Assembly (NCBI GenBank): GCA_963736855.1
Contig: CAVTQK010000015.1
Location: 384,001 to 448,000 of the forward strand
Origin: an uncultured delta proteobacterium
GTDB lineage: Bacteria > Desulfobacterota > Desulfobacteria > Desulfobacterales > UBA2156
Direction of reading: 5' to 3'
Length of the DNA stretch: 64,000 bases
Below, one piece after another: positions 1 through 17,769 of the stretch. The notes under the pieces were generated by a model. The model saw only the letters and a list, made by a program, of their open reading frames with translations. It ran no database searches and was not told the DNA's origin. Each line of letters begins with the position of its first letter. Positions within the stretch are counted from its first letter, which is position 1. The position numbers and the translations under genes were made by a program.

Positions 1-1
1 C

Positions 2-403
2 TTTATGCTCTCCCTCGCGGCCTGCAGGGAATGCAAAGCTTGCCGTTCCCGCCTTTCGCCGGCTCAGGGAAATGTTCGAAGTTCCGAGCATCTTCTCTCC
101 CAAGGAAAACCGCACCCGCACCGGATCAAAAACTTCTATTCCTTCACATGCAACCACAGCGGTAGCCGTGACCTCATCGCCCTGATCAACCCTTGCGCTG
201 CTGAGGGAAAGACTCTTGAGTATCAGGTTCGGTTTTATCTTCTCGGGTTCCCGCACTTCTTTCCTGGTAGGTATCTCTCCCCGATCCTCCCGACCAGACT
301 CCGCCTGCCTACCCTCGAACGAACGGCTCCTGCGATCCTGACCAGAAACATAAAAGGGTATACATAAAAGAAAAAGAACTCCGATCAAAATGCCCTTCTT
401 CAT
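2..403 (-). CDS. Secreted protein with CARDB/Ig-like domain, 3'-partial (runs off window start)
   Basis: Not in the ORF track (no stop in window). Manual translation: MKKGILIGVLFLLCIPFYVSGQD... (signal peptide) ...KPNLILKSLSLSSARVDQGDEVTATAVVACEG...VRVRFSLGEKMLG...ASFAFPAGREGEHK. ATG overlaps the upstream gene's stop (TAATG at 405-401). Confidence 0.7.
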   Translation of the reverse strand, partial: MKKGILIGVLFLLCIPFYVSGQDRRSRSFEGRQAESGREDRGEIPTRKEVREPEKIKPNLILKSLSLSSARVDQGDEVTATAVVACEGIEVFDPVRVRFSLGEKMLGTSNISLSRRKAGTASFAFPAGREGEHK

Positions 404-1729
404 TATGCTCCGTCTCTACTGTTTTGAGCTCTTTTTATGGTTCGACTTCTGGAAATCGCAATGGCGACATATAGTGGAACGAAAATCAGCATGCAAATAA
501 GCCAAAAGACCGGTCTCATCATGATCCATGAGGCGCCGACAACGGGCATCAACATGATTCTGGCTGCTCTTCGGAGCCCATCGGATTCCGATAGATAAGC
601 AGCGATTTTCGGGGAGCATGAATAATACAACCGGACAAGGAATCTGCCCGCGCCGCTTTTAGCCAGGATTCGGTCTCGGAATTTCCTGAGGATATCGACC
701 TGCCAGGCTACGGGAGATCCGTAGGCGGCGGTCGCGATAAAACAGCCGCCGCCACCGTCATCGGAAGGCGGCGATGAAGGGTTGGGACCCACAGCAATAT
801 CGACAGGACCGTCACCGGCGAAAATGGATGCGATCAGGGAACAAGAATCCGCATCGATGACCGAAATGATATCATCCGATGCATTGGCGACAAATACCGT
901 CTGGCCGGAAGGGTGGCATGCGACACCGCCGGGGTCTCGTCCCACGGCGACGGTGGAGACAACGGTGTTGGAGGCGCTGTCGATTACAGAAATGGTGTCG
1001 TCATCAGTGTTTGCAACATACACCCTGCTTCCGTCGGGCCTCACAGCCAGGCCGGATGGGTTGCTGCCGACCGTGATAAGGTCCAGACCTGCATTCGCCA
1101 ACGTGTCAATGGGCATCACGGCGTTTAAGTTTCCCGATGCGTAGGCCCGGTTTCCCGAAGGCGAAACAGCGACGCTGACAGGAAATCGCATGCCGATATT
1201 GGCCACCACGGTATTTGTTGCCGTATCGATGGTATGCACGGTCCACAGACGCAGCATGGCAACATAAACCCTTGCCCCGCTGGCATCGGCTGCAATGCCA
1301 TACGGCCAGGAGCCCAGCGTAATTGTTTGCGTCAGCGTATTCGTCGTCGCATCGATCACCGAAATCGTGAAGCTGTTGTTATTGGTCACATAGACCCGGT
1401 TTTGAGAGGAACTGAAGGCGACATCCTGAGGTTCCGGACCGACGGCTATCGTCAGCGATCACGCTGTTTAAGGCCGTATCAATGACGGATACCGTGTCGG
1501 AACCTCTGTTGGCGCAGAAGGCTCTCGAACCATCACCGTTGAGGGCTATCCCCTGGGGTTGGTCGCCGACTGGAATGGATGCGATAACCTGATAGGTGGT
1601 GGAATCCAATACGGTCACACGATCGGAGTTGAAGTTGGCAACATAGATGCGCTCGGCATGCGACTGAGCAGGCACAAGGGGAAGGCATAAAAAAATTGCC
1701 AAACCAATCCAAGAAAATCGTCTGGTCAT
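403..1729 (-). pseudogene. YVTN beta-propeller repeat protein with C-terminal CFI-box-CTERM domain; one +1 frameshift at ~1453 (pseudogene or sequence error)
   Basis: ORFs 1379-1729 (signal peptide, IYVANFNSDRVTVLD) and 403-1389 join into ...NSVIA-TIAVGPEPQDVAFSSSQNRVYVTNNNS... if one base at ~1453 is removed. C-terminus GGGGCFIATAAYGS...LRKFRD...LYY plus TM helix and basic tail. Confidence 0.85.
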
Positions 1730-1785
1730 GGTGCGATTTCTCCTACTGGGTGGTTTTCAGTTTCACTGCCGGGGTATTATTAATT

Positions 1786-2308
1786 GATAAGAACTTGCTT
1801 TTACACGGATGGATTAAGGACGAGGATGGATTGTGTTTTGTCATCATCCGTACCTCAAGATATGGGAACCTTCAGGCAATGTGACGTATATACTATTGAT
1901 TATCCGAAAGGAAATGTGCTGTCAATCGGGATTGTATAGCCAAGATGCCGTTTTCCTGGAGTGTTCGGGCATAGGTCGCCTGTCTGCGTACATTGCACAG
2001 GCAGGCGAGTCAACTTCGGACGGGTTTTTCAGAAATAAGAATCCATGGGGTAAGCCGGGTCGGCGACGTAATCCTCTGTGGAAGGCGCAACGGGGTCATC
2101 ATATGTTGCCGTCTCAATCAGGGTCGGGGCATGGGCGACATGCCTTTCCGGTCGTTTCGGATCCCATAAGTTCAGGTGGTTGAGTATTTTTTTAATCACA
2201 TCCGAATTTTCTATGAACGCGACCACCCGCATTTTTCCCTGGCACTTGGGCCAGGCCAGGGGATTGATCTCATATATTTTTTTTGGATCAGGCGCGACCA
2301 GCTTTTTC
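1786..2308 (-). mobile_element. IS91/ISCR-family remnant 1: transposase 3' end plus ori-like end
   Basis: Minus strand encodes (WSRLIQK)IYEINPLAWPKCQGKMRVVAFIENSDVIKKILNHLNLWD, an IS91-type C-terminus. Ends AAAAGCAAGTTCTTATC|AATT, resembling the oriIS TTCCTAT motif. Homologous to 10908-11439 and 16733-17023. Confidence 0.85.
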
Positions 2309-2647
2309 GAAAACAAAGAGGAGGCCACTTTTGACCTGTCAACTGCCAATCGTTCGGTACGGCTTGCTGTGGATCCCGGGTATGATCTGTTTCGGCGTCT
2401 CGTTCGCGAAGAGATCCAGCCCACAGTGAATTCCATCCGGGGTTCCACTTCGCTTCTAGCCGTAGTCGCCGGAGATCCTTCTACCGATGATCTGAAGACG
2501 GTCAGAACCCTGCTCGCGGGCCTCAGCCATCCAGAAACGCACATTCTCCGCGAAGCAAATACGGTGCCGCAGCAGCTCAAAGCTCACGATATTCTCTACT
2601 TCGCCATAGGCGGGAGAAAAGGCCATCTTCCTGCCCCTTTCATCTGA
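2309..2647 (+). pseudogene. Internal fragment of a probable M1-aminopeptidase-like gene
   Basis: RLAVDPGYDLFRRLVREEIQPTVNSIRG resembles the post-catalytic segment of deltaproteobacterial M1 peptidases (recognised from memory). No credible start; begins at the IS91 breakpoint. Confidence 0.45.
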
Positions 2648-2796
2648 AGCAGATCAAATGCTTGTTGGCAAGATCCCGCATTGCGGAAATTACAGCCATT
2701 TCATTTTCCGTAACGCACAGAATCTGGTAAAAAGCACTCGGTCAGTCGCCGCATCGCCGACTATATGTAATCTCATTTCAGAGGATCGAGAGAGGG

Positions 2797-3627
2797 CTAG
2801 TGCACTCTGATGTAGGGACTATAAATAATACCGTTTATGAGCAAATAGACGCCAAAGGCCAATGCGGCATATCCAAAGGCAAAGTAGAGTACTTTATACC
2901 AGAGAGCTGGGGCAGGGGCCTCGGCAAGCTCGAGATTCCCCTTTTTTTCTAGTCGCTCCACCCAGGCCGGTTTTTCCTCCATGGCTTCTTTAAGTTTGAC
3001 AGTGCCTGCGAACATCGCCTCATTCAATGGAAAACTGAAGGGTCGAAGATGCCCGACAAAAAAATGAATTATGAAGATGTAAAGAACCGCCAAGATTGCC
3101 TCCGCCTCGTGCAAGAGGCCGGCCACATTGAGTCCCCAGCCAGGCAATATGCGGCTTGTGGCGAGAGGATACATGAGCATGAGCCCGGTGCCTGCCAGCA
3201 GTGGTAAGCCCCAGAAGACCGCCCAGTAATCGAACTTCTCCCAGTAGGCCCAACGGTCCAATTTAGGGGGCGAACCTAATCCAAAAAACCATAGAATTCG
3301 CTGCCATAGATGCCGTGCATCGTGAAAGTTGGGAACCAGAGAGTCCGGCCCCAAAATGCTTTCTCCCAAATTCCGCCAGTCAACCTTGGTGAAGAGGTAT
3401 ACGACATGCACCAGGAAACCGACAATCATCAAGAGACCTACCCGTTGATGGATCAGAAACGAGGAGTCATAACCCCCGAAGACATTGCTGAGTGTCTTGC
3501 CCCAAGAGGTGGTAATGAATAGACGACTGAAACCGGTGGCCGACTGAATCAGAAAGGTTAGCATAAGGAAGAAATGAAACAGCCGATCTATCTTATTAAA
3601 TCGTTTTATATGCATTGTCGACTTCAT
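2797..3627 (-). CDS. Membrane cytochrome b (FdnI/CbcL-like di-heme b domain)
   Basis: RFNKIDRLFH, IHQ, WAYWEKFDYWAVFWG, LLHEAEA, IIHFF; several TM helices; ATGA overlap with the upstream gene. Confidence 0.88.
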   Translation of the reverse strand: MKSTMHIKRFNKIDRLFHFFLMLTFLIQSATGFSRLFITTSWGKTLSNVFGGYDSSFLIHQRVGLLMIVGFLVHVVYLFTKVDWRNLGESILGPDSLVPNFHDARHLWQRILWFFGLGSPPKLDRWAYWEKFDYWAVFWGLPLLAGTGLMLMYPLATSRILPGWGLNVAGLLHEAEAILAVLYIFIIHFFVGHLRPFSFPLNEAMFAGTVKLKEAMEEKPAWVERLEKKGNLELAEAPAPALWYKVLYFAFGYAALAFGVYLLINGIIYSPYIRVH

Positions 3628-4307
3628 TTCTCAGACTTCCCTTTCTTCCTGAATAGCTCACGCAAGCCCACCAGAACACTATGCGGCACAAAGAAACCCA
3701 GTGTGAAAAGTAATAGCAAGAGCATAAACCAGTAAGTGTAATACAGGAGGGGAAAGCTCTTCTTGGTTCCTGGCGCCCCTGGTGCAGGTTCATGGATAAC
3801 ATAACTGGCGAAAGATGCACCCGCACCCTCATGACACTTGGCGCATACGTACGCATGCTTCCGGATCGGGTTCATGGGTGAATTAAAGTATTGAATGCTG
3901 GCAATGGGTTCCCCCCCATGACACTGCCGGCAGGTTAAGTTGGCACGCACCGTGTGGATGTCTTTCGTCTGCTCGGAATGGCAGGTCTGGCAGGTCTTCT
4001 CCGTGTAAAACGCAATTCCCATGTGAGAGTCGCCAAGGCGCGAGCGGTTCCTCACCTGGGCCGCTGACGGGCTGTAGGGAAACAACCCGACCTGAACGCC
4101 GGGGACCTCGATGAAGGGCCGCTGGCGCCTTGGCCGCACTTCATACTCCTCATAATAGCCCGTGCTGGCCTCCCGGTCCTTATACCGTCGGATCGCGGAA
4201 GCCACCTCCTCCTGGGCGGAGGCCGGGGGCGGCAGGGCAAAGAGTACGCCTGCCGCCACGGTGACCAGCACGATCAAGAGCCTCAGAGTGACTGATGACC
4301 TTGCCAT
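3624..4307 (-). CDS. Membrane-anchored triheme cytochrome c
   Basis: Signal peptide; CQTCH, CRQCH, CAKCH; C-terminal TM helix. Confidence 0.88.
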   Translation of the reverse strand: MARSSVTLRLLIVLVTVAAGVLFALPPPASAQEEVASAIRRYKDREASTGYYEEYEVRPRRQRPFIEVPGVQVGLFPYSPSAAQVRNRSRLGDSHMGIAFYTEKTCQTCHSEQTKDIHTVRANLTCRQCHGGEPIASIQYFNSPMNPIRKHAYVCAKCHEGAGASFASYVIHEPAPGAPGTKKSFPLLYYTYWFMLLLLLFTLGFFVPHSVLVGLRELFRKKGKSEK

Positions 4308-4320
4308 CGTGCTCTCCTGT

Positions 4321-5604
4321 TCATTTCTTTGGGGTAGCCAGCTTGTAACCGATTGGCTCGATGGGTTTCCCGACCGGTTTGGGAATTTTTGCCAAGGCCT
4401 CCCACTCTGCCTGCAATTTTTTCAAATCCTCATTCTTGTGCTTGTGGCAGGTCTGGCAGGAGTTGGGCATATCCTTGTTATTGAGCGTCTCCGCGGGCAG
4501 CAGGGTGACAAACACATGGCTGTGCAAGTCACCGGACTCGGCACTGGTTACGATCCGCGGCATGTGGCAGCCTACGCAGTTAGCGAAGGAGTGGATTGAG
4601 TGGGCCATGTTCTGATTGGTTTGGACATGGCACTGAAAACATTGCTTGGAACCCGCTGCCTGGGTCTGGGAGCGGGTCGGCGGTACTCCGATCTGGTGCA
4701 CGTAGTGGCATGACACGCAATTCACGCCTTCCTTGAAATGTTTGGACTGCTTCCAGTCGATGTATTGCTGGTGATGGGCCTTGGAGAACTCGTTGCCGTA
4801 AAGGTGATTTGCGTCGCCGCCGGCGAATGAGGTGGACTTGAAATAGCTTTCCAGTACTCTACCGGGCTCGTAGCCCACGGCCCACTCCGCATCCTTGTAT
4901 TTGGTGGCCTTGCCGCGGTTGTGGCAGGAGCCGCAAATCTCCACGGCCACTCCCGAGGTGAGCTTGGAGGGGTTGACGATGGTCTGCCTCTTTTCGAAAA
5001 CGGCTGTCTTGGGCAGCGCCGCGTGCCAGGACCCTTTCCCATGGCAGGCTTCGCAGCCCACGGCAGGCTCGACGAATTTTTGCTTGTCGAGATCGACGCC
5101 GGTGGCATGGCAACCGCCGCACTTGAGTAGCCAGGGATTTTTATCCCAAGTGGCCTCGTTATAGTTCACCCAGCGATCGGTGTCGGCATTGTATTGAACC
5201 GGGGAGATATATAGCACGCCGCCCTTTTCCACGATGTAACGCTGTTTCCACTGGCTGCCGATGGTATATTTTATGTCTTCGATTTTGGGGATAAAAATTT
5301 GATCGGCCGGGACCTTCAGCTTGTCGCCAAGTTTGGCGAGATCTTCGCGGATTCTCTTCTCGTCGAAATCCGCTATGATCGCGTCCCTGTTTTTCTGGGC
5401 ATCCTGGGTCATGCGGCTGTGGAGTGTCATCATCCAGGAATCGAAGTGCTCCAGGTGGCACATCTTGCAGGTGTCCGACCCGACATAGGCTTTCGGCTGT
5501 GCCATGAGCTGCTTGATGTCAACCGCCTTCTCTCCGCCGCAGGCGGACAGGACCAGGGCCATGACACCGATGGTCAGGACCGCTATCAACGCTCTTGCCT
5601 TCAT
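4321..5604 (-). CDS. Octaheme cytochrome c lipoprotein (c554/c552-type multiheme)
   Basis: Start MKARAL at 5604 after GGAGG; lipobox LSAC; eight CxxCH motifs (CKMCH, CGGCH, CEACH, CGSCH, CVSCH, CFQCH, CVGCH, CQTCH). Confidence 0.92.
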   Translation of the reverse strand: MKARALIAVLTIGVMALVLSACGGEKAVDIKQLMAQPKAYVGSDTCKMCHLEHFDSWMMTLHSRMTQDAQKNRDAIIADFDEKRIREDLAKLGDKLKVPADQIFIPKIEDIKYTIGSQWKQRYIVEKGGVLYISPVQYNADTDRWVNYNEATWDKNPWLLKCGGCHATGVDLDKQKFVEPAVGCEACHGKGSWHAALPKTAVFEKRQTIVNPSKLTSGVAVEICGSCHNRGKATKYKDAEWAVGYEPGRVLESYFKSTSFAGGDANHLYGNEFSKAHHQQYIDWKQSKHFKEGVNCVSCHYVHQIGVPPTRSQTQAAGSKQCFQCHVQTNQNMAHSIHSFANCVGCHMPRIVTSAESGDLHSHVFVTLLPAETLNNKDMPNSCQTCHKHKNEDLKKLQAEWEALAKIPKPVGKPIEPIGYKLATPKK

Positions 5605-5855
5605 TTCGACCTCCGTGAGTTGGGTTTGGGTGTGATCACACTTCTGAGCAGGCACATGAACTCGTCTGGGTCTACCGGCCTCCCCGGGCAGGCGCAAATT
5701 TGACGCTTGAGGGACTCTTCCAGGTTCAAAAGCAAAGGTTCACAGGCCAAGGCGATGATCGTGAGCGGGTGCTCGATCTTGAGCTCGCGCAGTGCGGTGT
5801 GGATGAACTGTTTCGCATACAGATCGCTGACGAGAAATCACTTTTCGACAATTTT

Positions 5856-5885
5856 AACCTATCACATGGTGTGGAACTTTGTCAA
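5856..5885 (-). promoter_or_regulatory. Candidate sigma70 promoter for the cytochrome operon
   Basis: Minus strand TTGACA-N18-TAGGTT with TG just upstream of the -10. Confidence 0.35.
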
Positions 5886-6030
5886 TGGTTTTTGTTTCGA
5901 CATGGCAATCATAGAGATCATTCGCCTGTAAGACACGATTCATCCTTGGTTCGGGGCATGACCTCATTCTTTATGCCAGTATCTCGAGGACTGCTGGTCT
6001 TGCATGAAAACGTTAAGTCCAGGTTTAGGG

Positions 6031-6201
6031 TTATGGTGTTTCATCACTATTACCCGGCATATACCAGTCACCCCCGAACGTGTTGATGAGGGCCACCGCG
6101 ACAACCAATCGCTGGCCGTGAAGGCGGATCCCGGTGCGCTCAGTCCCCAGCACTGTATTCTGCGCCGTCGCCACTTCAAGATGGGCATCGGGGGCCAGCA
6201 G
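6031..6201 (-). pseudogene. 3' fragment of an OprM/NodT-type RND outer-membrane efflux protein
   Basis: Manual translation HLEVATAQNTVLGTERTGIRLHGQRLVVAVALINTFGGDW...stop matches the family C-terminal pattern YLEV..AQ....QRL...V.LI.ALGGGW. No 5' part present. Confidence 0.6.
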
Positions 6202-6423
6202 GGAAGATTTACTTTGCTGAGGACCTCACATCGACGCTTCACCACTATTTTGTGTGGAAAACGTTGAAAAAGCTGCTCAGGCAGTCTTGCCGGTTTGTGC
6301 GGTGGACTTAACATCAATGCAGTGCAATCAAAACTTGACTATGGTACACTTCTTCAAATCGATGCCCCATGCAGGCCAGCCAGAACATACGCAACGCTCC
6401 TATACCTTTAGGCAAATTGAATT

Positions 6424-6499
6424 GATAAGAAGTCGCTTTTTTGCGGGTGGATAAAGCAAGAGCATGAAGTGTGTTTTACCATCGTCTGGACCCCAAGAT
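6424..6499 (-). mobile_element. IS91/ISCR-family remnant 2: ori-like end only
   Basis: GATAAGAAGTCGCTTTTTTGCGGGTGGATAAAGCAAGAGCATGAAGTGTGTTTTACCATCGTCTG is nearly identical to 10908-10983 and 14199-14269; preceded by AATTGAATT. Confidence 0.85.
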
Positions 6500-6570
6500 C
6501 TGAGCATTTCAAATCCTGAGATTGGCAGCGGATATACGGAATCTGCCACTGCTGTGGGTGCTGACTTCTG

Positions 6571-9500
6571 TTATTGACTTTCGTCCAGCACTCCCCGAAT
6601 CGTTTTGAGCATTTCTTGGACATCATACGGCTTATGGATAAAGGCTTTGGCCCCGATCTCCGAGACTCTCTCGAACTGTCCGGCAACAGAATAACCGCTG
6701 GCGATGATAACCTTGGCCTGGGGATTCATCTCCAGGAGCATTTGAAGACATTGCGTTCCTCCGATTCCGGGCATAATCAGGTCGAGGATAACCAGCTTAA
6801 TTCTGTCTCTATCCTCTCGGTAGACTTGCAGGGCGGTCTCACCATCTTCTGCGCTGATGACCGTGTACCCAAACATTTTGAGAATCGTTTTGCCTAGATC
6901 ACGCACAACATCATCATCATCCACAAGAAGTATGATCTCATCGCCGCCGCGCTGCTCTGCCACCCCTGTATCGATACGGGAAGTTCCTTCGAGTTGCTCG
7001 ATCGCTGGAAGAAAGATCTCGAATGTGGTTCCCTGGCCTGGATTGCTGACGCATGTGATGTGCCCATGGTGATTCTTGACTATGCCGTAAACCATGGCTA
7101 GGCCCAGGCCGGTGCCTTTCCCGACCTCCTTGGTGGTAAAAAACGGATCAAAGATATGTTCCAGGGTAGTCTTTTCCATCCCTTGACCCGTGTCGGCAAC
7201 GGTGAGAAGAACATAACTCCCGGGAGAAAACTCTGGCTGGGTGCGGCGATAACCCTCATCCGGAACGATGTTTTTCGTTTCGATTCTGAGCGTGCCACCA
7301 TCCGGCATGGCATCCCTTGCATTTACCGCGAGATTCATCAAGACCTGCTCGATCTGTGAGGCATCGGCATTCACATAGTGAAGGTTCCACGTCAGATGCA
7401 GCTCGATCCTGATCATTTTGGGGATGGTCCGTTCAAGTAACATCCTTACATCGTCCACAATTCGGTTGAGGTCAACGGGCTGGAGTTGTGATTCCACCTT
7501 GTGGCTGAAGGTGAGCAGCTGGCGGGTGAGATTGCCCCCGCGTTTGGCGGCACGACTGATCTCCTGAAGTTCTCGGTAGCCTTTCTCTCCTTCCGTCTTC
7601 TTCAAAAGTAACAAATCCGCATAGCCTTGGACGGCCTGGAGGAGGTTATTGAAATCATGGGCGATACCTCCGGCGAGCGTACCAACGGCCTCCATCTTAT
7701 GGGCCTGCCGAAGTTGTGCCTCGAGCTTCTTGGTTTCGGTGATATCGATGACGATTCCTCTAATTCCGACAGCCTTCCCATCACGGAACTTGGCGGTGGA
7801 GTGCATAATCACGGGAAAGGTGCTCCCGTCTTTGCGTAGCGCGATGTATTCATTCAACCCAAGCCTCTCTCCGTTCATGACTCTCTTGGCGTTTTCAAGA
7901 GCCCTGGGTCGATCTTCCGGAGATATCATATCAAAGCCGTTCAGGCCTTGTTTCAGGTCCTCTTGGGAAAGCCCAAAATGAGCGAAAGCATTCTGGTTGA
8001 CAAAGGTGATATTCCCGCTGGCATCCATCTCAAAAACGGTTTCAGGTAGCAATTCGGCCAGTTCCTGGAACCTCTCCTGACTCTCCCGCAGCGCCTCTTC
8101 CCCCTGCTTGCGCTGGATGATTCGCCACATGCCGGTCATCAGCAGAGTGAGTTGGCGCACGTCGGCCTCGTCATAATCCGTTGGCTTGTTTCCGACACCG
8201 GAAACCAGCACGATGCGGTCCCCGTCGAAAAGAGGGACGTTCATATGCCGGTGCACCGCCACGTGGCCTGGGGGAGTGCCACGTTTGAGGGGGTTGGGAG
8301 CCTGATAATCATTGGTGATGATTGGGCGACGCTGGCGAACGGCTTCGCCCCAAAGACCGGTCGTCTCGACGGGGTATTCGATGGGTTTGTCAACCATCCG
8401 GCATTCCTGCATGGCCAGACGAGACCAGGCATGCATGGTAAGCACCGTTTCATCCTCGTTCATGAAGGCTACATATCCGATGGTGCTTTGTGTCAGCCGG
8501 ACCGCTTCTTCCATTGAGAATTCAGCGATCTCGTGAAATGTGGCGCCGGTCATCTGATTGAGCTGGAGAAGCGTTTCCAGACGGGATTCGTCGAGCCGGC
8601 GTGCTTCTTCCGCACACTTACGCTCAGTAATGTCTCGCACCACGCTGATCAATGTGCGAGTGCCATCGACGGTTTCACCCCGCGAGCTGACCTCCACTGG
8701 GAACGTGCTACCGTCGCTGCGTCGGTGGACGGTCTCGAAGAGCAGCCCGCGCTCATCCGCCTCCGCCATTTGGTCGGCGGTCAACTCCAACGTTTCAGGC
8801 GCGCGCAGGTGATGGATTGTCAGCTCCAGTAGTTGCTCACGGCTGTACCCATAGGCCTTCGTGGCCGCTATATTGGCTTCCAAGATGCGCCCATCGTCTC
8901 TTCGCATGAAAAGGATGATGTCCCGACTGTGGACCACCAGGAGTTCGTAGCGATGCAGCGACTCTTCAGCGCGTCTACGTTCGGCTAGGGCTTTAAATTC
9001 CCGACGCTCAAGCAGGTGCTGTCGAACGAGCAAGAGAACCATGATCAACGTGATTGCCAGGGTCAGAGTGAAGAGCAGATTGACACTGAAAAGGAACCGG
9101 TCAAGGCGATCGCGCTGCTCCGTCAGGATTCTGTCGGCTGTCAATTCAGAAGCGTGGTTCAGGTCTCTGGCTTTCTGAAATGCCCCGGTGATCCGGGACA
9201 ACACAATCTCAATGGTGGTTTCCGTCTCCGGACCATACCCCGAGACGCCTTCGGAAAGCCAAAGCTGTACATCGGCGATGGCCGGAGCAACGACAGCGTG
9301 GAACGCGGAAGCCTGGATCAGATTGTCGAACACATAGGTGGTGCGCAGTCCGACTATGGCATTGTGGACGGCCATGACTTTGTTACGAAGCCGCATGAAG
9401 TTCTCCGAAGTTGGGGCAACCTTGGTCACTTCAGCGGCAGAGACGACTTGCGCAAGATCTTCGTTGACAAGCGCCAGGTCATGAAGCTGTCCAAGCAGTG

Positions 9501-9630
9501 TGCCGGGAAGATTCTTTTCCACTGAGCGCAGGGTGACGTTGGTGTGGATCCCTGCCGCAATCAGGGCGACAAGGACGGATACCACGGCGCTCCAAAGCAA
9601 AATCTTGATAATGGGTGGAGGCCGTCTCAT
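6571..9630 (-). CDS. Membrane hybrid sensor histidine kinase (2TM-PAS-GAF-PAS-HisKA-HATPase-REC)
   Basis: H-box [38 protein letters not shown]; receiver LLVDDD...ILDLIMP...HKP. Start taken at MRRPPP (ATGA overlap with the TAXI stop). Confidence 0.93.
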
Positions 9631-10817
9631 GGGGTTGGCGTTCTTTTGGAAACTATGCCATGCTCTCGGTAGAATCGTTCTGCTCCCGGATGAAGCGGGA
9701 TCGAAATGCCTTGCAAGGCGGTCTTGAGGGTAATCGCCTTTCCTTGGGGGTGCCCGCCTTTCAAAAGCGACAGTGTCCGCTCGCTCCACAAGGAAGCGGT
9801 CAGCTGGTAAACGAGGTCTTCGGGAATCGCTGAGCTGACCACCAGCAGGGCATGGACCTGCAGGGTCGGAGTATCCGGAACCCCCGGATAAGCACCGGCG
9901 GGTATTTCACCTGGGACGAGGTAAGGAAATTTTGCATTGATCCGCAACGCAATCTCTCGGTCAATGGGAACAAAGAATAGCCCAATATCGGCTACACGCT
10001 GGGCCGCTTCCATGGGAATGCCCGCCATCACTACAAAACCCTGAAGTTCACCTTTCACCATTTTGTCATCAGTAAAATTGGGCTTCAAATACAATGGGTA
10101 CATATCTTTCTCGGACAAGCCATAGGCATCGAGAACGATTCGCATCACCATCAGCGAGCCTGAACCGATTTCGTCGATGGAAATCCGTTTCCCGCGGAGA
10201 TCCGACACGCTGCGTATGTTGGCATCCCGGCGTGTCACGATCTGAAATTTCTCGGGGTAGAGGCTCGCAACCGCACGGACGACTTTGACGCTTTCATCCC
10301 CGGCGAAAACCCGCTCTCCCTGAAAGGCCCAAGCTGCAACGTCGGCTTGGACTATTCCAGTTTCGATCTCTCCGGATGCCAGCGCCCGCACGTTGGCTAC
10401 CGAGCCGCCGGAACTTTGGGCCACACCGATGTATCCCGGCAGTCCAAGCACTCCGGCTTGAGGCATAGCCTCTCCTTCAGCAGGCCCAGTCAAACCCTGC
10501 GCAATCAACTTGCCAACCGGATAATAGACGCCTGAAGTCCCACCCGTTCCGATGCGAAACAGTCGTTTTGCTTCTCCCACACAGGGGGCGGGCATGGCCG
10601 TCAGCAGAAACAAACACAATATCATCAGCATGTAAGGTACCGGAATTCGGTCATTACGATCCGATCCAGGTATCCCTCGCACAACCGGGAGTTGTCTTTT
10701 CGTTCGATAAGATCTTACAAGCTGTCTCAGTCGCTGCCGATTCATTTCCTCTTGCTCCTCCCGGTTGAGATATCGACCAAAACCGTCTCTTACGCTCATG
10801 ACCTGAAGATGTTGCAT
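9627..10817 (-). CDS. TAXI-family TRAP solute-binding protein (true start may be ~10631)
   Basis: IGTGGTSGVYYPVG, SSGGSVANV, QADVA, LYPE, IPLHPGAERFYRE; signal-like segment MLMILCLFLLTAMPAPCVG. Confidence 0.9.
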   Translation of the reverse strand: MQHLQVMSVRDGFGRYLNREEQEEMNRQRLRQLVRSYRTKRQLPVVRGIPGSDRNDRIPVPYMLMILCLFLLTAMPAPCVGEAKRLFRIGTGGTSGVYYPVGKLIAQGLTGPAEGEAMPQAGVLGLPGYIGVAQSSGGSVANVRALASGEIETGIVQADVAAWAFQGERVFAGDESVKVVRAVASLYPEKFQIVTRRDANIRSVSDLRGKRISIDEIGSGSLMVMRIVLDAYGLSEKDMYPLYLKPNFTDDKMVKGELQGFVVMAGIPMEAAQRVADIGLFFVPIDREIALRINAKFPYLVPGEIPAGAYPGVPDTPTLQVHALLVVSSAIPEDLVYQLTASLWSERTLSLLKGGHPQGKAITLKTALQGISIPLHPGAERFYREHGIVSKRTPTP

Positions 10818-10907
10818 ATGTGACCGATCTCTGGAATGTATATCTGTTGTGGGAACATTCTGTGCGTTGTCGATGAGTCTATCTGGAGTGAGTCCACCGA
10901 TTCAATT

Positions 10908-11725
10908 GGCAAGAAGTCGCTTTTTTGCGGGTGGATTAAGCAAGAGCATGAAGTGTGTTTTACCATCGTCTGCACCCCAAGATATGGGAACACACATTTG
11001 TCGTGGCGTGTAAATTCTCGATTAACTGAAGGGAAATCCGCTGTCAATACGAATTTTATCTGCAAGAGGCCATTTTCCCGGCTGGTTCGAGCATAGGCCA
11101 CCTGTCTGCCGGCCAGGTAGGGATCGCACAGGCAGGGCGGGTCAACTCCGGACGGATTTTTCAGAAATAAGAATCCATGGGGTAAACCGGGTCGGCGACG
11201 TAATCCTCTGTGGAAGGCGCAACGGGGTCATCGTATGTCGGGTGTTCAATCAGGTTCGGGGCATGGGCGACGGGCCTTTCCGGTTGTTTCGGATCCCATA
11301 AGTTCAGGTGGTTGAGTATTTTTTTTATTCACATCACGATCTTCGATAAACGCGACCACCCACATTTTCCCCTGGCACTTGGGGCAGATCAGGAGATCGA
11401 CCTCATATATTTTTTGGATCAGGCGCGACCCGCTTTTTCTAAGTGCCGGTGGGGGACGGCTTTGATGACTTTTTCACACAACCATTGCCCGAACTCCACC
11501 ACGCGCTTCTGATGACACGAGGGACAAAAGTGACGCCTTTTGCATGGAAAGGACAAAAGGTATTCGTGACCGCACTTCCCGCACCGAACCCTGGCGAACC
11601 CGTTATGGAGCACCCCGCAATCTAGATACCAATGGATCACCTCTTTGACATACGGGCGGAAAAAGCTGTATCCCCTCTCAAATCGATCTTCATAGATGCG
11701 TTCAAAGTTGGATTCAACAACATTG
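10908..11725 (-). mobile_element. IS91/ISCR-family remnant 3: internally deleted transposase plus ori-like end
   Basis: N-terminal Zn-binding domain YLDCGVLHNGFARVRCGKCGHEYLLSFPCKRRHFCPSCHQKR...VPHRH is joined at ~11440 directly to the C-terminus RLIQKIYEVDLLICPKCQGKM. The HUH/Y2 catalytic core is absent. Confidence 0.92.
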
Positions 11726-11891
11726 ACTCTCGACCTCCGGTGGGCAAGGAAGGCATCAGAGGCTGATAGTGATCAGTCCTTTTTCCCACCAGAGGCGAGA
11801 AAGGGGAAGGTTTGTTCCATTTTTTAAGACAAACAATTGGTGGAGCGGAAGCTTTCCCGCCCGCACATTGCGTTTCTTCTCCAAAGAGGCG

Positions 11892-12494
11892 TTAGAAATC
11901 ATAATCATAAGTTTCGTCGTGAGCCGGTTTAATATCTTTCATCATGACCACGACATCAACCGGCATGTTGTTCCGGTCCTTGACCATGTTCGGAATCACT
12001 GTTGCACGATAAAATCCCGCTCTGGCGAAAGCGTTGATAGCCGATGTGTTGATGTCCGGAATCTCGACGAGTAGTTTTTCAAGCCCGAGTTTGTAAGCGA
12101 TGTCCGCGAGCTCTTCGATCATCAGATGCCCCAGACCGATGTTGCGGTAGTCTTTGTGCACAAAGATCCGCACAGTACCCAGGTGCCATTTCCAGCCGGA
12201 TCGACGGCGATTGATAGTGGCATCGGCAACAATTTTGCCATCTCTTACTGCCACGATGGGCAGGGTCTTGGCATAGTCGAGGTTCTTCGCCCATTTTTCA
12301 ATAAGGAGCCTGCTTGAAACCTCGTCACGCAAATACCGTGCATCTTCTGCGGGAACCGCCTGGAAAAACTCATACACAGCGTCCTTATCTTCTGCCACCA
12401 TAGGACGTAGAATAATCTTGGTCCCATCTTTCAGATGAGTTTCCTTGTGATATGTGTTTAAATTGATTGTGGGATAAATGTTGGGATCCAACAT
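11892..12494 (-). CDS. GNAT-family N-acetyltransferase (resembles the GNAT domain of protein lysine acetyltransferases)
   Basis: LKDGTKIILRPM, FVHKDYRNIGLG acetyl-CoA motif; GGAGG RBS. Confidence 0.88.
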   Translation of the reverse strand: MLDPNIYPTINLNTYHKETHLKDGTKIILRPMVAEDKDAVYEFFQAVPAEDARYLRDEVSSRLLIEKWAKNLDYAKTLPIVAVRDGKIVADATINRRRSGWKWHLGTVRIFVHKDYRNIGLGHLMIEELADIAYKLGLEKLLVEIPDINTSAINAFARAGFYRATVIPNMVKDRNNMPVDVVVMMKDIKPAHDETYDYDF

Positions 12495-12599
12495 GGCGAG
12501 TACCTCCTTTCATCTCTCAGGGGTTAATTGATCGAGGTCTGTCCGCAAGACAGGCTCTCCGGACAGGTTCCTTAGTAAACTCGTTCACGAATGCACAAA

Positions 12600-12616
12600 A
12601 GCATTCTCCGTGCCGG
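12600..12616 (-). promoter_or_regulatory. Sigma54 (-24/-12) promoter of the GNAT gene
   Basis: Minus strand CCGGCACGGAGAATGCT = GG-N10-GC; AT-rich IHF-like tract at ~12645-12685. Confidence 0.75.
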
Positions 12617-12711
12617 ATTTAGAAGACCGAATTAGCTAGAGGTAAGATATTGAAAAAGAATGGAATATTAGGAAAACATTAGTTTCTGAAAGGTCAGGCA
12701 TTCCGCCAAGT

Positions 12712-12768
12712 ATTGCATTTTTGCACGACTATGCAATGCACAAATGTAGGTATGCAATCTCTCATGAA
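12712..12768. promoter_or_regulatory. Candidate enhancer (UAS) with clustered TGCA elements
   Basis: ATTGCATTTTTGCACGACTATGCAATGCAC...TATGCAAT, 100-150 bp upstream of the sigma54 promoter and directly after the activator gene. Confidence 0.5.
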
Positions 12769-14156
12769 CTCTTGCCGCTCGAACGACCGTTGCGTACCGG
12801 AATTTGAAGATTCAGGCGCCTTATTCTGCGCCACAAAGTGGTAGGGTGTATACCCATTTGGGCAGCGGTTAACTTCCGGCTCCAGTTATTCCTCCGAAGA
12901 TTTCCATAGATAAAATCTTTTTCCATGTCTGCCAATGAAGATGCAGACGCCATGATCTGTTCAGGAGACGGTATTACCCTATGTGCTAGCTTTCGGTGGA
13001 CGCTCTCAGGAAGATGCTCTATCCTTACCACGTGATCTGTACAAACCAATGTGGCATATTCGATGATATTTTCCAATTCCCGAATATTACCCGGATAATC
13101 ATAAGACATCAGAATACTCATGGCTTCAGGCGACATACCATGAACTTCTTTGCCCCTCAGACGGCTAAATCTTTGGACAAAATGCTCCACTAATAGAGGA
13201 ATATCTTCTTTTCGCTTTCTCAATGGCGGGAGAATTAGCTTGACGATATTGATCCGATAATAGAGATCTTCTCTAAACAGTCCCTTTTGAACGAGTTCTA
13301 CAAGGTTCTTGTTTGTAGAAACCACTATGCGGACGTTGGCCTTTTCCGATTTTGTGCTGCCGAGTGGTTCGTAGACTTTGTCTTGGAGCACTCGCAGGAG
13401 CTTAACTTGAAGCAACATCGAGATGTCTCCGATTTCATCCAAGAAGAGACTCCCATTTTGAGCCAGAGCCAGCCTTCCCGGTTTGTCCCTCTTTGCATCG
13501 GTAAACGCACCGGCTTTGTATCCAAAGAGCTCGGATTCGAGGAGCGTATCCGGTAATGCACCGCAGTTTACGGTAATCATCGGCCCCGTTTTTCTATGAC
13601 TGAGTGAGTGGATCGCTCTTGCAAAAAGTTCTTTTCCCGTTCCGCTTTCGCCTTCCAAGAGGATTGTTGTATCATCTTTAGATACCAACTCGAGCATTTC
13701 AAATAGGCGATGCATCTCCCGGTTGTTGCTGATAATGCCCAAAAAGGAATGCTGACCGGTCAGTTCTTTCAGTAGTTGTTCAACCATTCTTAGATCTCTA
13801 AATGTCTCAATTCCTCCGATCACTTTGCCGCTTTGATCTTTCAAGACAGCCGTAGAAATTGTTACAGGAATCCGGTCACCTTTTAAATCAACTATATAGA
13901 TGAATTGGTTCATAATCGGTTGGCCTGATTCAATTGTCTGACGCAGGGAGCATCTCTGCTCACAGATTTCGGCTTTGAATACTTCCCGGCAATATCGGCC
14001 AATTGCGTCGACTTTCTTGACTCCCGTGATCTGTTCAGCGGCACAGTTGAAAAAGCTAATCTTCCAGTCCGAGTCGACGGTAAAAACGCCGTCGGTAATG
14101 TTGTCAAGGATCATCTGGGTCTGATTTTCATGTGCTGTGTTCAAAGTTTGAATCAC
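12762..14156 (-). CDS. PAS-domain sigma54-dependent transcriptional activator (PAS-AAA+-HTH)
   Basis: GESGTGKE, ESELFG, GAFTDA, FLDEIG, FREDLYYR, YPGNIRELEN, C-terminal HTH. Confidence 0.93.
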   Translation of the reverse strand: MIQTLNTAHENQTQMILDNITDGVFTVDSDWKISFFNCAAEQITGVKKVDAIGRYCREVFKAEICEQRCSLRQTIESGQPIMNQFIYIVDLKGDRIPVTISTAVLKDQSGKVIGGIETFRDLRMVEQLLKELTGQHSFLGIISNNREMHRLFEMLELVSKDDTTILLEGESGTGKELFARAIHSLSHRKTGPMITVNCGALPDTLLESELFGYKAGAFTDAKRDKPGRLALAQNGSLFLDEIGDISMLLQVKLLRVLQDKVYEPLGSTKSEKANVRIVVSTNKNLVELVQKGLFREDLYYRINIVKLILPPLRKRKEDIPLLVEHFVQRFSRLRGKEVHGMSPEAMSILMSYDYPGNIRELENIIEYATLVCTDHVVRIEHLPESVHRKLAHRVIPSPEQIMASASSLADMEKDFIYGNLRRNNWSRKLTAAQMGIHPTTLWRRIRRLNLQIPVRNGRSSGKSS

Positions 14157-14198
14157 TTTCTCAGTCGACCTGTTTCTCAGCTAAAGTACCATTGAATT

Positions 14199-14316
14199 GA
14201 TTAGAAGTTGCTTTTTTACGGACGGATTAAACAAGAGCATGAAGTGTGTTTTACCATCGTCTGCACCCCTCGCATTTTCACCTGGCACTTGAAGCAGATC
14301 AGGGGATCGACCTCAT
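14199..14316 (-). mobile_element. IS91/ISCR-family remnant 4: 118-bp miniature (ori-like end fused to a short transposase piece)
   Basis: Ori segment matches copies 2 and 3; 14270-14316 encodes EVDPLICFKCQVKMR; abuts the GGDEF stop codon. Confidence 0.85.
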
Positions 14317-15738
14317 TTATTCCGCCATAACCGTCCGGTTGCGGCCATCGGTTTTTGCTTGGTAGAGCGCCTTGTCCGCCCGGTGGAAGCACTCGTCAAT
14401 AGACATTTCTCTTTCCATCTGGCAGACGCCGAGACTGGCTGTCATGCTGATTTTCTGGTCGTCAATCACGGCCGGGTTCTCGGCAAAATGGAGGCGGATT
14501 TTTTCAGCCACTTCCTTTGCCCCTGCTTTTTCTGTCCCGGGAAGCAGGATAAGAATCTCTTCTCCTCCCCATCGGGCAACGGCGTCCTGGTCTCTTAACA
14601 TGTTCCGTAAGGTTTGCGATACGTACATCAGCAATTTATCGCCCATTTCATGGCCGAACCGGTCGTTGACTTGTTTAAAATGATCCAGGTCAATAAGTAT
14701 AATCGACGAACCTTCCCCACTTCTCTTGATCCTTTTAAATTCCTGTTCCAGCAGAGAGATCATTGCGCGGCGGTTGATCATTCCTGTGAGGTAGTCGGTG
14801 GTAGCGGCTGTTTCCAATGCAGCTTCGGCACGCTTGCGCTCCTCTATCTCCTGCCGGAGTTGTTCATTGACCTCGGCAAGCCGGGCGGTTCGCTCGACGA
14901 CTCGAGTTTCAAGAGAATTCCTGGCATCCTGGAGTTCGTTCATGGCTTGTTGCGTGTGTTCATGGCTTTTTCTGAGACGGTTGGACATGGTGTTAAAAGC
15001 ATTGGCAAGGTCGCTTAATTCATCGCGGGTATCCACTTCCACCTGTCCGGGGAAGATTCCGTCGGCGATTTCGCTGGATCGCCGTACAAGAAGGCTGATC
15101 GGCCGGATAATGCGAGCGGCCTGTATTTTACTGAACCCGTACGCCAGCAGGAATGAGAGGACAAGCGAAACAAGACCCGCGATTCGGATGGTGCGGAATT
15201 TTTGCTGGACGTCATCGGCGCGCATGTCTATTCCCAATAGATACTGCCCCTTGCCATTCTTTAACGGCGCATAGCCGGAAAGAAAACATCCCCATTCATC
15301 GCAGGTGATTTTACTGTCTGCGGTAAGATTTTCAAATCCGTGTTTCATGTTCGGGACTTCGACATCATAAAGTTTGCCGGGATGTGCCTGAGCATCCGAT
15401 GTATCTGAGTCAATGACAAATACGATGTCTTCGCCCTGCTTGCGCATGATATAGATAAACGCGATATCTTTATTGGCTGTCTGAAATTCTCTGAGCATTT
15501 TCAGATAATTCTGATAGGCGGGAAGAGATGCGTCCTGGGGACCCTTGATGTCCACAATATCATTGGCATCCATTGCGCGGCTGATGAGTGCCGCGCTGTT
15601 CATCAGCCGGTTCTGGAGTTGTTTGAATAACGTACTGATGGCGCTGTGGTAAAAATACGTGCCGATGCTGCCGGAAACCAGAATAATGACCAGAAAGTGG
15701 CTATAAAAGAGTTTTTTCTGGATTGTAAAACGCATCAA
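14317..15738 (-). CDS. Membrane diguanylate cyclase (periplasmic sensor-HAMP-GGDEF)
   Basis: Two TM segments, HAMP (RDELSDLANAFN), DYLTG, DLDHFKQVND, RxxD I-site (RDQD), RWGGEEI, ADKALYQAK. Confidence 0.92.
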   Translation of the reverse strand: MMRFTIQKKLFYSHFLVIILVSGSIGTYFYHSAISTLFKQLQNRLMNSAALISRAMDANDIVDIKGPQDASLPAYQNYLKMLREFQTANKDIAFIYIMRKQGEDIVFVIDSDTSDAQAHPGKLYDVEVPNMKHGFENLTADSKITCDEWGCFLSGYAPLKNGKGQYLLGIDMRADDVQQKFRTIRIAGLVSLVLSFLLAYGFSKIQAARIIRPISLLVRRSSEIADGIFPGQVEVDTRDELSDLANAFNTMSNRLRKSHEHTQQAMNELQDARNSLETRVVERTARLAEVNEQLRQEIEERKRAEAALETAATTDYLTGMINRRAMISLLEQEFKRIKRSGEGSSIILIDLDHFKQVNDRFGHEMGDKLLMYVSQTLRNMLRDQDAVARWGGEEILILLPGTEKAGAKEVAEKIRLHFAENPAVIDDQKISMTASLGVCQMEREMSIDECFHRADKALYQAKTDGRNRTVMAE

Positions 15739-15939
15739 CCGGATCTCCGTAAAGTTGAAAGGTCAGTTAGGGCGCTGCGGCCGAAGGGCAATCATATCCC
15801 GGGTGATTTTACTTTTTTCCCAGGAGCATCTTAAGCACGCGATGTCTGAAGAGGCTACTAGAGAGTCCGGCAATCGATCCGACGCGCCACGGTGAGCATA
15901 CCACTTTTGTGGAACCAACCGTTCAAAAATTCGCATCGA

Positions 15940-16200
15940 TTGAATGTCTATCAACTTACGACCTGCTTTCCGTACTTCAATCCCATAGAGAAACTATGGA
16001 AAAAGGTCAAACAGGATGGAACTTATCCTCATTACTTCCCCACATTTGAAGACCTCGTCGGAAAGGTTGATGAGATCCTCCCTCTATTTCAAAACTCTCC
16101 AGATGAAATCCTTTCCCTCTTTGGTCTCAACAACGAACTTGAAAACCATGCGAGGCTGGCAGCATAATCTCACACCAAAATATTCTTTTTAAAACCATAG
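15940..16200 (+). mobile_element. IS630-family transposase 3' fragment with probable right end
   Basis: VYQLTTCFPYFNPIEKLWKKVK...YFPTFEDL is a degenerate LPxYSPxxNPIE motif; no N-terminal part. Confidence 0.75.
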
Positions 16201-16223
16201 AAATCCACAGAAAGGGAGTCTCA

Positions 16224-16655
16224 CTATCTATTCTCTAAAGCGGCCAGTCGATCCCTAAGCTCTTTTTCCTTTTGCCATCTGGTGGTTACATCGCGAACAA
16301 TCGCGGCAGAACCCAAGATTTCTCCAATGGAAAAGCGTACAAGAACCATACTGAATTCAACGGAAATGCGTGTTCCGTCCTTCCGCATTGCCGGTACTGC
16401 CAGCAATTCTCCGGCGTAACGGGTAGAACCGGTCGCCATAACCTTACGGTAGCCCTCCCAATGCCGGGTCCGTAGTTTCTCAGGGATAATGAGATCGAGG
16501 CTTTGCCCCGTTGCCTCTTCTGCACTAAATCCGAAAATGGATTCCGCCCCCGAATTCCAAAGCTCGATTTGACCATCTCGATTTGCGAAGATGATTGCAT
16601 CTTGGGTTTGATCCACAATTTGTCGGTACAACCACTCGTTCGTGTATTTCTGCAT
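16224..16655 (-). CDS. Stand-alone PAS domain protein
   Basis: DAIIFANRDGQIELWNSGAESIFGF...LDLIIPE...RKDGTRISVEFS...IVRDVT; GAGG RBS. Confidence 0.9.
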   Translation of the reverse strand: MQKYTNEWLYRQIVDQTQDAIIFANRDGQIELWNSGAESIFGFSAEEATGQSLDLIIPEKLRTRHWEGYRKVMATGSTRYAGELLAVPAMRKDGTRISVEFSMVLVRFSIGEILGSAAIVRDVTTRWQKEKELRDRLAALENR

Positions 16656-16705
16656 TGGGCAACCTCTTGATATCTTATCAAATTTAAAGCCCCGGATACC
16701 TCCTG

Positions 16706-16738
16706 AATTGAATTGATTGAATTGATAAGATTGATAAG
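16706..16738. repeat. Stuttered (A)ATTG repeats and duplicated ATTGATAAG at the ori junction
   Basis: AATTG AATTG ATTG AATTGATAAG ATTGATAAG read directly from the sequence. Confidence 0.85.
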
Positions 16739-17023
16739 AACTCGCTTTTACAAAGGCGGGTTAAGGACGAGGATGGATTGTGTTTTGTCATCATCTGTAC
16801 CTCAAGATATGGGAACCTTCAGGTAATGTGACGTATGTACTATCAATTATCCGAAAGTGAACGTGCTGTCAATCGGGATTGTATCGCCAAGATGCTGTTT
16901 TCCTCGTGTGTTCAAGCACAGGCCTCCTTTATACGTGCATCGCACAGGCAGGGCGGGTCAACTCCGGACGGATTTTTAAGAGTAAGAATCCATGGGGTAA
17001 ACCGGGTCGGCGACGTAATCCTC
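16733..17023 (-). mobile_element. IS91/ISCR-family remnant 5: ori-like end plus last transposase codons; right boundary of the island
   Basis: Colinear with 1786-2076 (GGACGAGGATGGATTGTGTTTTGTCATCATC...GGGTCGGCGACGTAATCCTC). Confidence 0.88.
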
Positions 17024-17153
17024 AGTAGAAGGGATTCTCATTAACAAGACGGAAATTAACCAAACCGTCCTGGTGTGTGATAAGCTTGCCAGGCAGTGTG
17101 AGCAGGGGGAGGCCGCTTTCCAGGCGAATTAAAATTTGATACATATTGATTTC

Positions 17154-17528
17154 ATGAATATTTCCAATAAAAAATTCGATCGCATCGTCAAACAGGCCAT
17201 CGGCCGGATCCCGGAAGAAATCCATAGGCATCTGGATAACATCCTGATTACCGTACAAAATAAACCGACACCGGAAATGCTGTATGAGGCGGGACTGTCT
17301 TCGGATGAAACGCTGCTGGGATTATACCGAGGTGTGCCGCTTGACGAGCGTTCGATCATGAATCCGCCCCTTCATCCCGATACGATCTTCATCTTCAAAG
17401 AACCCCTTGAAGAGATGTGTTCAAGCCTGGAAGAACTGGAAAACGAAATCGAGATCACCATCGTGCATGAAATCGCCCACTTTGTCGGTTTCCCCGAGGA
17501 ACGCCTCTCTGAATTGGGTTACTCCTAA
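17154..17528 (+). CDS. Minimal zincin-like metallopeptidase
   Basis: LLGLYRGVPL, PDTIFIF, TIVHEIAHFVG (HExxH). Confidence 0.85.
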   Translation: MNISNKKFDRIVKQAIGRIPEEIHRHLDNILITVQNKPTPEMLYEAGLSSDETLLGLYRGVPLDERSIMNPPLHPDTIFIFKEPLEEMCSSLEELENEIEITIVHEIAHFVGFPEERLSELGYS

Positions 17529-17710
17529 ATAATGAGACAAACCCCCTGCCGGATGAACCTGATCGTTTCAGGGGTGAAAAGTTCAAATCAAACGAAAACC
17601 ATTTCAACATCTTTTTAGAGTCCTTGAGCCTTGTTAGGGTACAAATCAAAAGGAATTTTCGACACAAGGATAAGGATTTCTCGCAATCTCCCTTGGGGAA
17701 AATAAAATAA

Positions 17711-17740
17711 TTGACAGGCATTTTTATTTTCTGTTAGTAT
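17711..17740 (+). promoter_or_regulatory. Sigma70 promoter of the rpsF operon
   Basis: TTGACA-N18-TAGTAT with extended -10 TG. Confidence 0.7.
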
Positions 17741-17769
17741 ATTCGATTTATAGAAATCAGCCAACCACA

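Follow-up and report, generated by a model that had tools for sequence, protein, structure and literature searches.

The window analysed here comprises 64,000 nucleotides (nt) of an uncultured delta proteobacterium, positions 384001-448000 of contig C15 of the source assembly G000, which has 25 contigs. Its left part carries a gene array in which five related repeats, the ori ends of an IS91/ISCR-type transposable element, separate modules of different function. All five are in one orientation; the G of the tetranucleotide ATTG adjoining them lies at 1786, 6424, 10908, 14199 and 16733, giving spacings of 4638, 4484, 3291 and 2534 nt. An earlier note, made from the letters of this stretch, had described them as IS91/ISCR-type oriIS ends with a common terminal motif, AAAAGC(A/G)A(G/C)TTCT(T/A)(A/G)(T/C)C|AAT, and with transposase remains in four of them. 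This description holds: the motif is found in all five repeats, and no transposase is intact, copy 2 having no remains at all. Over their main segments, copies 1 and 3 agree with an intact relative in 50-63% of amino acids (aa), while copies 4 and 5 have kept 57 nt and about 60 nt, respectively, of the 3' coding DNA of the transposase. Each interval indeed holds an unrelated module, with cytochromes in the first, a hybrid kinase and a TAXI protein in the second, GNAT and a sigma-54 activator in the third, and GGDEF and PAS proteins in the fourth.

Extending the contig leftwards, as had been advised, reveals a sixth end at C15:381806, 2.2 kb left of the window. It is degraded, about 45 nt long and below the threshold of the hidden Markov model, and was found by eye directly behind the stop of a DVU0298/HEAT gene, at a synteny break. 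The whole island consists of six ends and five modules in 19.3 kb, that is n+1 co-oriented ends for n modules, and the G000-specific stretch begins about 2.2 kb before the window and ends at 17116. When 50 ends were placed at random in intergenic gaps, six ends in 19 kb were obtained in 0.015% of 20,000 trials, the sixth end having been added post hoc.

Some details of the earlier description need correction. All passenger genes are on the transposase strand within the window (11 of 11) but not in the whole array (11 of 13), the exceptions being two opposite-strand YeeE/YedE genes in module 0. The orphan gene fragments at module edges come down to an IS630 remnant, which scores below cut-off, and transposase pieces, with no others identified; extra transposase fragments lie within modules, both at 15783-15914 and outside the window on its left, at a distance of about 400-600 nt. 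The right boundary was said to be formed by zincin and rpsF. Among the congeners compared (G002-G005, with G005 as the sister genome of about 90% nucleotide identity to G000), zincin precedes rpsF in G003 and G005, whereas this part is unaligned in G002 and G004. We favour, with some reserve, the reading that decayed copies of a single-tyrosine element of IS91/ISCR type were the substrate on which this region, a lineage-specific island, was built and reshuffled.

Table 1. Features of the island (window coordinates unless stated otherwise).
Feature	Position	Strand	Content
Module 0, left part	2.2 kb left of window, to sixth end G000:C15:381806		transposase fragment; YeeE/YedE pair on +
Module 0, right part	1-1782	-	CARDB-domain gene (end left of window); YVTN/YncE-type beta-propeller gene, frameshifted
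Element 1	1783-2335	-	ATTG target 1783-1786, ori end, transposase 3' remnant (about aa 352-445)
Module 1	2797-5697	-	cytochrome b561-like, small c-type cytochrome, multiheme cytochrome c
Element 2	6416-6502	-	one 5-nt tip duplication, ATTG target, nothing but 78-nt ori end
Module 2	6571-10817	-	PAS-GAF-PAS hybrid histidine kinase; TAXI-family binding protein
Element 3	10905-11712	-	ATTG target, ori end, transposase 3' part (aa 352-445) joined to 5' part (about aa 27-116)
Module 3	11892-14156	-	GNAT acetyltransferase; PAS sigma-54 activator
Element 4	14191-14321	-	5-nt unit and ATTG target, 70-nt ori end, 57 nt transposase
Module 4	14317-16655	-	HAMP-GGDEF gene, transposase fragment (15783-15914), IS630 remnant (15892-16167, +), single-PAS gene
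Stutter at element 5	16707-16729	.	four exact tandem copies (5, 4, 5, 9 nt) of target and ori tip
Element 5	16730-17032	-	ATTG target, ori end, last transposase codons
Right flank	17116-18273	+	G005 homology resumes at 17116; zincin, then rpsF

Full-length relatives of the transposase, mostly in records titled Deltaproteobacteria, Syntrophales or Desulfobacterales, were found in 417 stretches, and the analysis continued with the 80 best of these. A matching ori end follows 190-280 nt past the transposase stop in 43 of the 80 loci; two doubtful tip calls were removed from this survey, and many of its loci stop short of the ori. Intact relatives exceed the cut-offs for PF14319, PF04986 and NF033538 (the NCBIfam IS91 model) and stay below that of the ISCR clade Ia model NF052416 (141.5 bits, cut-off 925). 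A single catalytic tyrosine is a trait of the ISCR branch. In the 40 variants listed the catalytic motif reads xxENLARYIIRAS, with one tyrosine and the first tyrosine absent, which places the element with the single-tyrosine ISCR branch. The IS91 transposase has two tyrosines, Y249 and Y253 (PMC5714925). The transposase has no match among solved structures. As judged by eye, upstream conservation in full-length relatives ends at the transposase promoter, no terIS being recognized, and no 5' end survives in the window.

An intact cognate transposase, for which a search of the genome had been advised, was not found in the 25-contig assembly, where all cognate matches are fragmentary. IS91-family frames on C9, C17 and C24 were rejected as candidates, with 22-26% identity and no such ori nearby. 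A frame of 411 aa at C24:202149-203384 belongs to another IS91 clade, has a two-tyrosine catalytic motif and carries no ori of the array's type.

Module order in strain X1 and in sister genomes

A second arrangement of the island is seen in X1, one public run from a strain that holds all island modules at 96-99% identity to G000. Four of the 23 runs listed (X1-X4) were compared with the island; X2-X4 consist of short pieces, whose joints and depth differences were not used. In contig 3 of X1 (5386 nt, depth 25) window positions 15858-16938 are joined to 2205-6441, so that element 5, preceded by the PAS gene, passes after its first 205 nt into inner element 1 and module 1 and not into zincin. 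The joint is supported by at least 255 nt on each side, and all five module-to-ori-tip junctions are found in the X1 contigs as in G000. The simplest reading is an order 3-4-1-2 in X1 as compared with 1-2-3-4 in G000, i.e. a circular permutation brought about by one excision and one re-entry. Because the switch lies inside a remnant and each tip still adjoins its outer module, the event looks like homologous recombination, unlike insertion at a tip. Exact stretches of 35-46 nt are common to elements 1, 3 and 5. An apparent mosaic break of element 3 relative to the copy on C21 proved to be an artefact of the end of the C21 copy. G000 and X1 form a natural before-and-after pair with differing module order, in which either strain may represent the earlier state. 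In X1 the beta-propeller gene of module 0 has one base fewer at window position 1453 and no frameshift; the frameshift in G000 is possibly due to an error of sequencing or to a recent lesion.

The assembly of the region from separate modules, as proposed in the earlier note, is borne out by these comparisons; the proposed route is not. According to the latter, a trans-acting transposase nicks an ori and rolls through remnant and module to the next NNTG|ori, and the circle inserts at another ori tip, the tips resembling attC/attI sites. The n+1 layout fits this equally well, the tips have been processed repeatedly (see the tandem units described below), and both read-through and action in trans have been shown for IS91 and IS801 (PMC13181058, PMC3189936). 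Cargo with its ori would then be inserted at ori junctions, but X1 keeps its five tip junctions and has the new joint inside a remnant, at least 205 nt within the element. Moreover, the ori after the PAS gene in X1 is of the ori5 type (22 differences in 1081 nt, as against 13% between ori1 and ori5), G000 and G005 have different oris to the left of module 2, and the G000 assembly lacks an intact cognate transposase. We consider such a cassette route improbable.

It could also be argued that X1 is not permuted. Its joint would then mark where an excised circle, or a tandemly amplified block of modules 1-4, connects head to tail, or it would come from chimeric assembly of short reads. The joint does connect the right end of the block to its left end, and the X1 contigs break at most elements, none of them spanning the array. 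On the other hand, contig 3 runs unbroken through the joint, with letters that are absent from G000. The G000 joins ori5-zincin and ori1-module 1 are absent among the pieces listed (876 pieces, 16 joints beyond these), and the zincin contig has other transposase sequence upstream. This explanation is very unlikely in our view; a circle or an amplification would likewise mean recombination between remnants.

The locus upstream of zincin-rpsF, for which a comparison of related genomes had been recommended, contains no array in G005, where the DVU0298/HEAT gene is almost directly joined to zincin. The locus is variable in the genus, with trkH/trkA in G002 and an unaligned insert of 2.4 kb in G004. 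Modules 2 and 3 are present in G005 at other end-marked loci. The module 2 copy (88-89% identity) stands behind an ori that is orthologous to another one of G000, C21:798567. This ori retains its own outer gene in both genomes and differs on its inner side, which speaks against ori plus cargo as the unit inserted. The module 3 copy (92% identity) lies in a tRNA-Leu island between other co-oriented remnants, its ori being a different one and 350 nt further upstream than in G000. A homologue of module 1 in G003 (74% identity) adjoins the same tRNA-Leu, and a scan of 7.4 kb around it detected no element. Other modules have more than one location as well: a PG-binding module occurs twice in G000 (73% identity), each copy outside an ori, and the AAA_14/DUF4143 module of the C24 array (L018:11656-13026) has 95% identity in G003, as against about 75% for core genes, and was probably transferred between species recently.

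Clustering, orientation and tips of the ori ends

A profile search of G000 yielded 52 ori ends at E<1e-6, or 51 after merging of one 52-nt tandem pair. Subtraction of two assembly duplicates and addition of the sixth end found by hand results in the set of about 50 ends (exactly 50) used below; three without usable tip anchor were omitted from the analysis of tips, leaving 47. The probable duplicates are C5:13788 and C14:5384 as well as C15:709 and C23:801, near-identical or identical ends with identical flanks on different contigs. Overall, the ends are 45-800 nt long, 70-92% alike and fall into at least two sub-lineages.

Instead of one chromosomal hotspot, as assumed before, G000 has seven co-oriented clusters. 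Neighbour pairs within 6 kb number 13 against 3.7 expected, a value reached in 0 of 20,000 trials, and 12 of the 13 are co-oriented. For pairs up to 10 kb apart co-orientation amounts to 13/14 (8/9 excluding the window array) and beyond 10 kb to 13/24; five of five further close pairs within the genus are co-oriented too. The cluster at C21:155-165 kb has the same n+1 layout as the window array. Four clusters were compared with five congeners and are mostly unmatched, apart from parts of the C19 and C24 clusters. Replication-strand bias was rejected as the cause of co-orientation, just 29 of 51 ends agreeing with the local GC skew. The earlier note had named a similar density of repeats in random orientation throughout the genome, or relatives with the same gene order without repeats, as findings that would speak against it; the ends are in fact clustered and co-oriented, and the sister genome G005 does not have the same gene order minus the repeats.

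Alternatively, the ends may be passive debris, inserted singly into an island that was assembled otherwise. Their common orientation would then reflect that insertions upstream of, and facing, genes were favoured or kept, the island genes sharing one strand. The outer gene does read away from the ori in 41 of 50 ends, at a median distance of 81 nt, and this bias holds genome-wide with lone ends included; inner genes have their 5' end at the element in 20 of 49 cases (Fisher P 3e-5). The different ori upstream of module 3 in G005 suggests that an ori was inserted afresh, the tRNA-Leu island holding modules 1 and 3 in G003 and G005 is an ordinary one, and orientation is mixed in other genera. 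Against single insertions, the X1 joint lies inside elements and shows that they take part in rearrangement, and the left edge of the island is an ori whose outer gene points toward it. In addition, promoterless internal transposase fragments are also all co-oriented within clusters, and neighbouring ends are close kin: of 20 clustered ends, 8 have their nearest relative within their own cluster, compared with 0.9 expected. We regard the debris explanation as unlikely.

The tetranucleotide at the tip is NNTG, with ATTG in 21 of the 47 ends. That of element 4 is native in the upstream region of the sigma-54 gene in G005; five comparisons of filled and empty sites gave no clean empty site, and the tetranucleotide may be either the target or carried along. 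Exact tandem units made up of an end's own tetranucleotide and the first ori bases, here called stutter, precede 13 of the 47 ends. The corresponding control values are 0.46 for shifted flanks and 5.0 for swapped flanks (maximum 11 in 5000), with 63 of 3427 among genome sites. In other genomes stutter is seen at 11 of 37 near-intact elements, where its units reach 40 nt. The units are 4 to 40 nt long and always begin at the first base of the tetranucleotide, although single units of 4-5 nt may be native target. No two-sided target duplication was seen at the ends, all duplications being one-sided tandem copies of target and tip. Nicking, short extension and religation could account for the stutter and would place the cut 5' of the tetranucleotide; a constant start for units of such different length constrains the cut site. 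A run of about 100 nt, made up of 3-7 nt target and tip units, lies at the ori of an element with a full-length transposase (L177:1679-1780, G034:C27), and L116, L146 and L174 contain similar runs with other tetranucleotides.

The motif TTGACA is present in 35 of the 47 ends, with a -10 box that is poor or at 15 nt, and a promoter scan of the ends returned 12 sites as compared with 14.8 expected. In a related sub-lineage TTGAC-N17-TATAxT is conserved. It is conceivable, but rather doubtful, that the NNTG|ori tips are reusable recombination sites at which transposase in trans, possibly SOS-controlled, nicks repeatedly, thereby producing the stutter, and loads modules behind an outward promoter. 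The genome would then have an integrase-free, integron-like system for sensing and respiratory genes, in several arrays whose content is reordered by host recombination. In relatives the transposase promoter overlaps the palindrome AGAAC-N4-GTTCT, which we take to be of the LexA box type (L106, L108, L111, L113, L147 and others). SOS control has been reported for ISCR1, ISCR2 and ISCR8 (PMC13393415).

Proposed assembly and points against it

Our preferred reading, an island built and reshuffled on decayed ends, would proceed in three steps. With a transposase available, ori ends, often one-ended fragments, would have been joined behind NNTG; the junctions themselves are observed and the enzyme is presumed. 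Such ends were probably produced by one-ended transposition as for IS801, and repeated nicking of their tips probably left the short target and tip duplications. As the sites are mostly just upstream of gene starts, a module would come to read away from an ori at its 5' side. In the second step a module between two co-oriented remnants would loop out as a circle, either by homologous recombination or by rolling-circle read-through. Third, circles would re-enter by homologous recombination inside a resident remnant, a mechanism proposed for the reordering that X1 displays. The expected outcome is n+1 ends for n modules, a preference for remnant-bearing sites and permuted module order, with a module and the ori at its 5' side as the stable unit. 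Such an array would need no transposase today. Precedents exist for both parts: right-end fragments of IS801 transpose, and the authors regard IS801 fragments mainly as recombination substrates (PMC3189936); entry of circles by homologous recombination is the Toleman model for ISCR1 arrays (PMC7707992).

Several observations weigh against this reading. The reordering rests on one strong joint from one run. That joint has 28 extra letters and lacks about 200 nt, and is not a simple crossover product. The two weaker joints that a clean circular permutation needs, of an element-1-like remnant to module 3 and of a transposase fragment to zincin, have 76 and 22 nt on their short side. The mosaic structure of element 5 is compatible with a crossover near 16910-16940 and is equally readable as the result of mutations private to element 1. 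For modules 2 and 3, the junctions with remnants lack homology between G000 and G005, so that neither move was a single crossover in a shared remnant. The short locus in G005 may be a deletion, without an ancestral empty site being required, because its HEAT gene end is shorter than in G000 and G004. Outside the genus, 6 of 14 close pairs in G006, G160, G161 and G164 are co-oriented, as are 11 of 18 ends near intact transposases; of matches to the R2 model, those at E<=1e-5 only were counted, weaker ones possibly being ordinary promoters. Finally, no window copy passes the sigma-70 promoter scan, and copies 0, 2 and 4 have no TTGACA.

Relation to known arrays, and further observations

The earlier note did not know of a described array of this sort. 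Co-oriented, ISCR-delimited arrays with varied cargo have nevertheless been reported, namely ISCR1 complex integrons (PMC7707992) and ISPps1 on pADP-1. In ISCR1 complex class 1 integrons co-oriented IS91-like copies likewise lie between non-cassette gene units. Genes on the oriIS side of ISCR1 read away from it (PMC6218425), as do the outer genes here, and ISCR1 units are thought to enter as circles via homologous recombination (PMC7707992). Unlike those integrons, the array described here is chromosomal, the homology is provided by a decayed element, several arrays exist per genome, the cargo consists of sensing and redox genes, and the outward promoter is only a candidate. No intI1 or 3'-conserved segment domains are found among the island proteins scanned.

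On pADP-1 three co-oriented IS91-like transposases, 9.5 and 11.7 kb apart, enclose different amidohydrolase modules. ISPps1 is the closest named element among plasmid matches (29% aa); we take it to be ISCR8 and the pADP-1 genes to be atzA/atzB. The pADP-1 copies are intact, near-identical, plasmid-borne and paired with IS1071, whereas only old ends are found here. IS801 belongs to the two-tyrosine branch. Its miniature right ends in Pseudomonas syringae are fragments of 229-679 nt that undergo one-ended transposition and serve as recombination substrates, and the accessible parts of the report describe neither co-oriented module arrays nor tip duplications for them (PMC3189936). IS91 and IS1294 have in common with the present element a HUH transposase with PF14319 and PF04986, an ori 3' of the gene and a tetranucleotide next to the ori. 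Their target is CTTG or GTTC, and IS91 members are said not to duplicate it (PMC13181058). The element here differs in its one tyrosine position (NLARYIIR), in that no conserved terIS was seen, and in the duplication of target and tip at many ends.

With integrons the island shares n+1 sites for n modules and reorderable content. IS26 pseudo-compound arrays show both properties as well. The separators in the island are transposon-derived, and, as the earlier note had stated, no integrase is present, the island proteins that were scanned having no integrase domain. Exchange at a fixed position was not observed; in the one event available the sole strong joint lies inside a remnant and the tips are retained. 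The region is no integron but works like a tandem array of ISCR1 or ISPps1, with ends of the IS91 family. This kind of array is known; what is new is that several such arrays of decayed ends occur on a chromosome, that module order differs at the level of strains and that tips carry stutter. A literature search, with most subscription papers outside its coverage, found nothing on tip duplications or chromosomal arrays of decayed ori ends. ISCR-type gathering of genes is known mainly from resistance and catabolic plasmids, and here it is seen on a chromosome at several loci, on ends of 45-800 nt that escape annotation yet carry this logic. Two questions become testable with this case: whether it is transposase acting at the tip or recombination by the host that makes arrays grow, and at which point an ISCR-type enzyme with a single tyrosine cuts.

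Repeated ends were also encountered elsewhere. In L183 (G164:C30:271001-291000) a related sub-lineage is represented by five co-oriented, near-identical ends. Four of these follow one another at about 2 kb, and directly behind each of the five lies a different gene (radical SAM, nitroreductase, MarC, metallo-beta-lactamase fold and nitroreductase). A Trichlorobacter plasmid (L197, NZ_CP058410.1) has 14 matches to the transposase, among them two co-oriented copies 7.8 kb apart with the same three-gene block ahead of each. G000 possesses rnf, rubrerythrin and cytochrome c3 genes, which, taken with the relatives of the transposase, suggest an anaerobe of the Desulfobacterota type. A small GC-rich hairpin, CCTG(C/T)CTGC...GCAG(G/A)CAGG, is inserted in several remnants (window 11100-11130, L010, L013, L049:10584-10630) and once within transposase coding sequence, and the X1 joint coincides with a hairpin of this type. 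A separate repeat family of G000 comprises some 60 copies of about 165 nt with about 90% identity, e.g. C15:121145-121316 and C9:642932-643101, and is polymorphic relative to G005.

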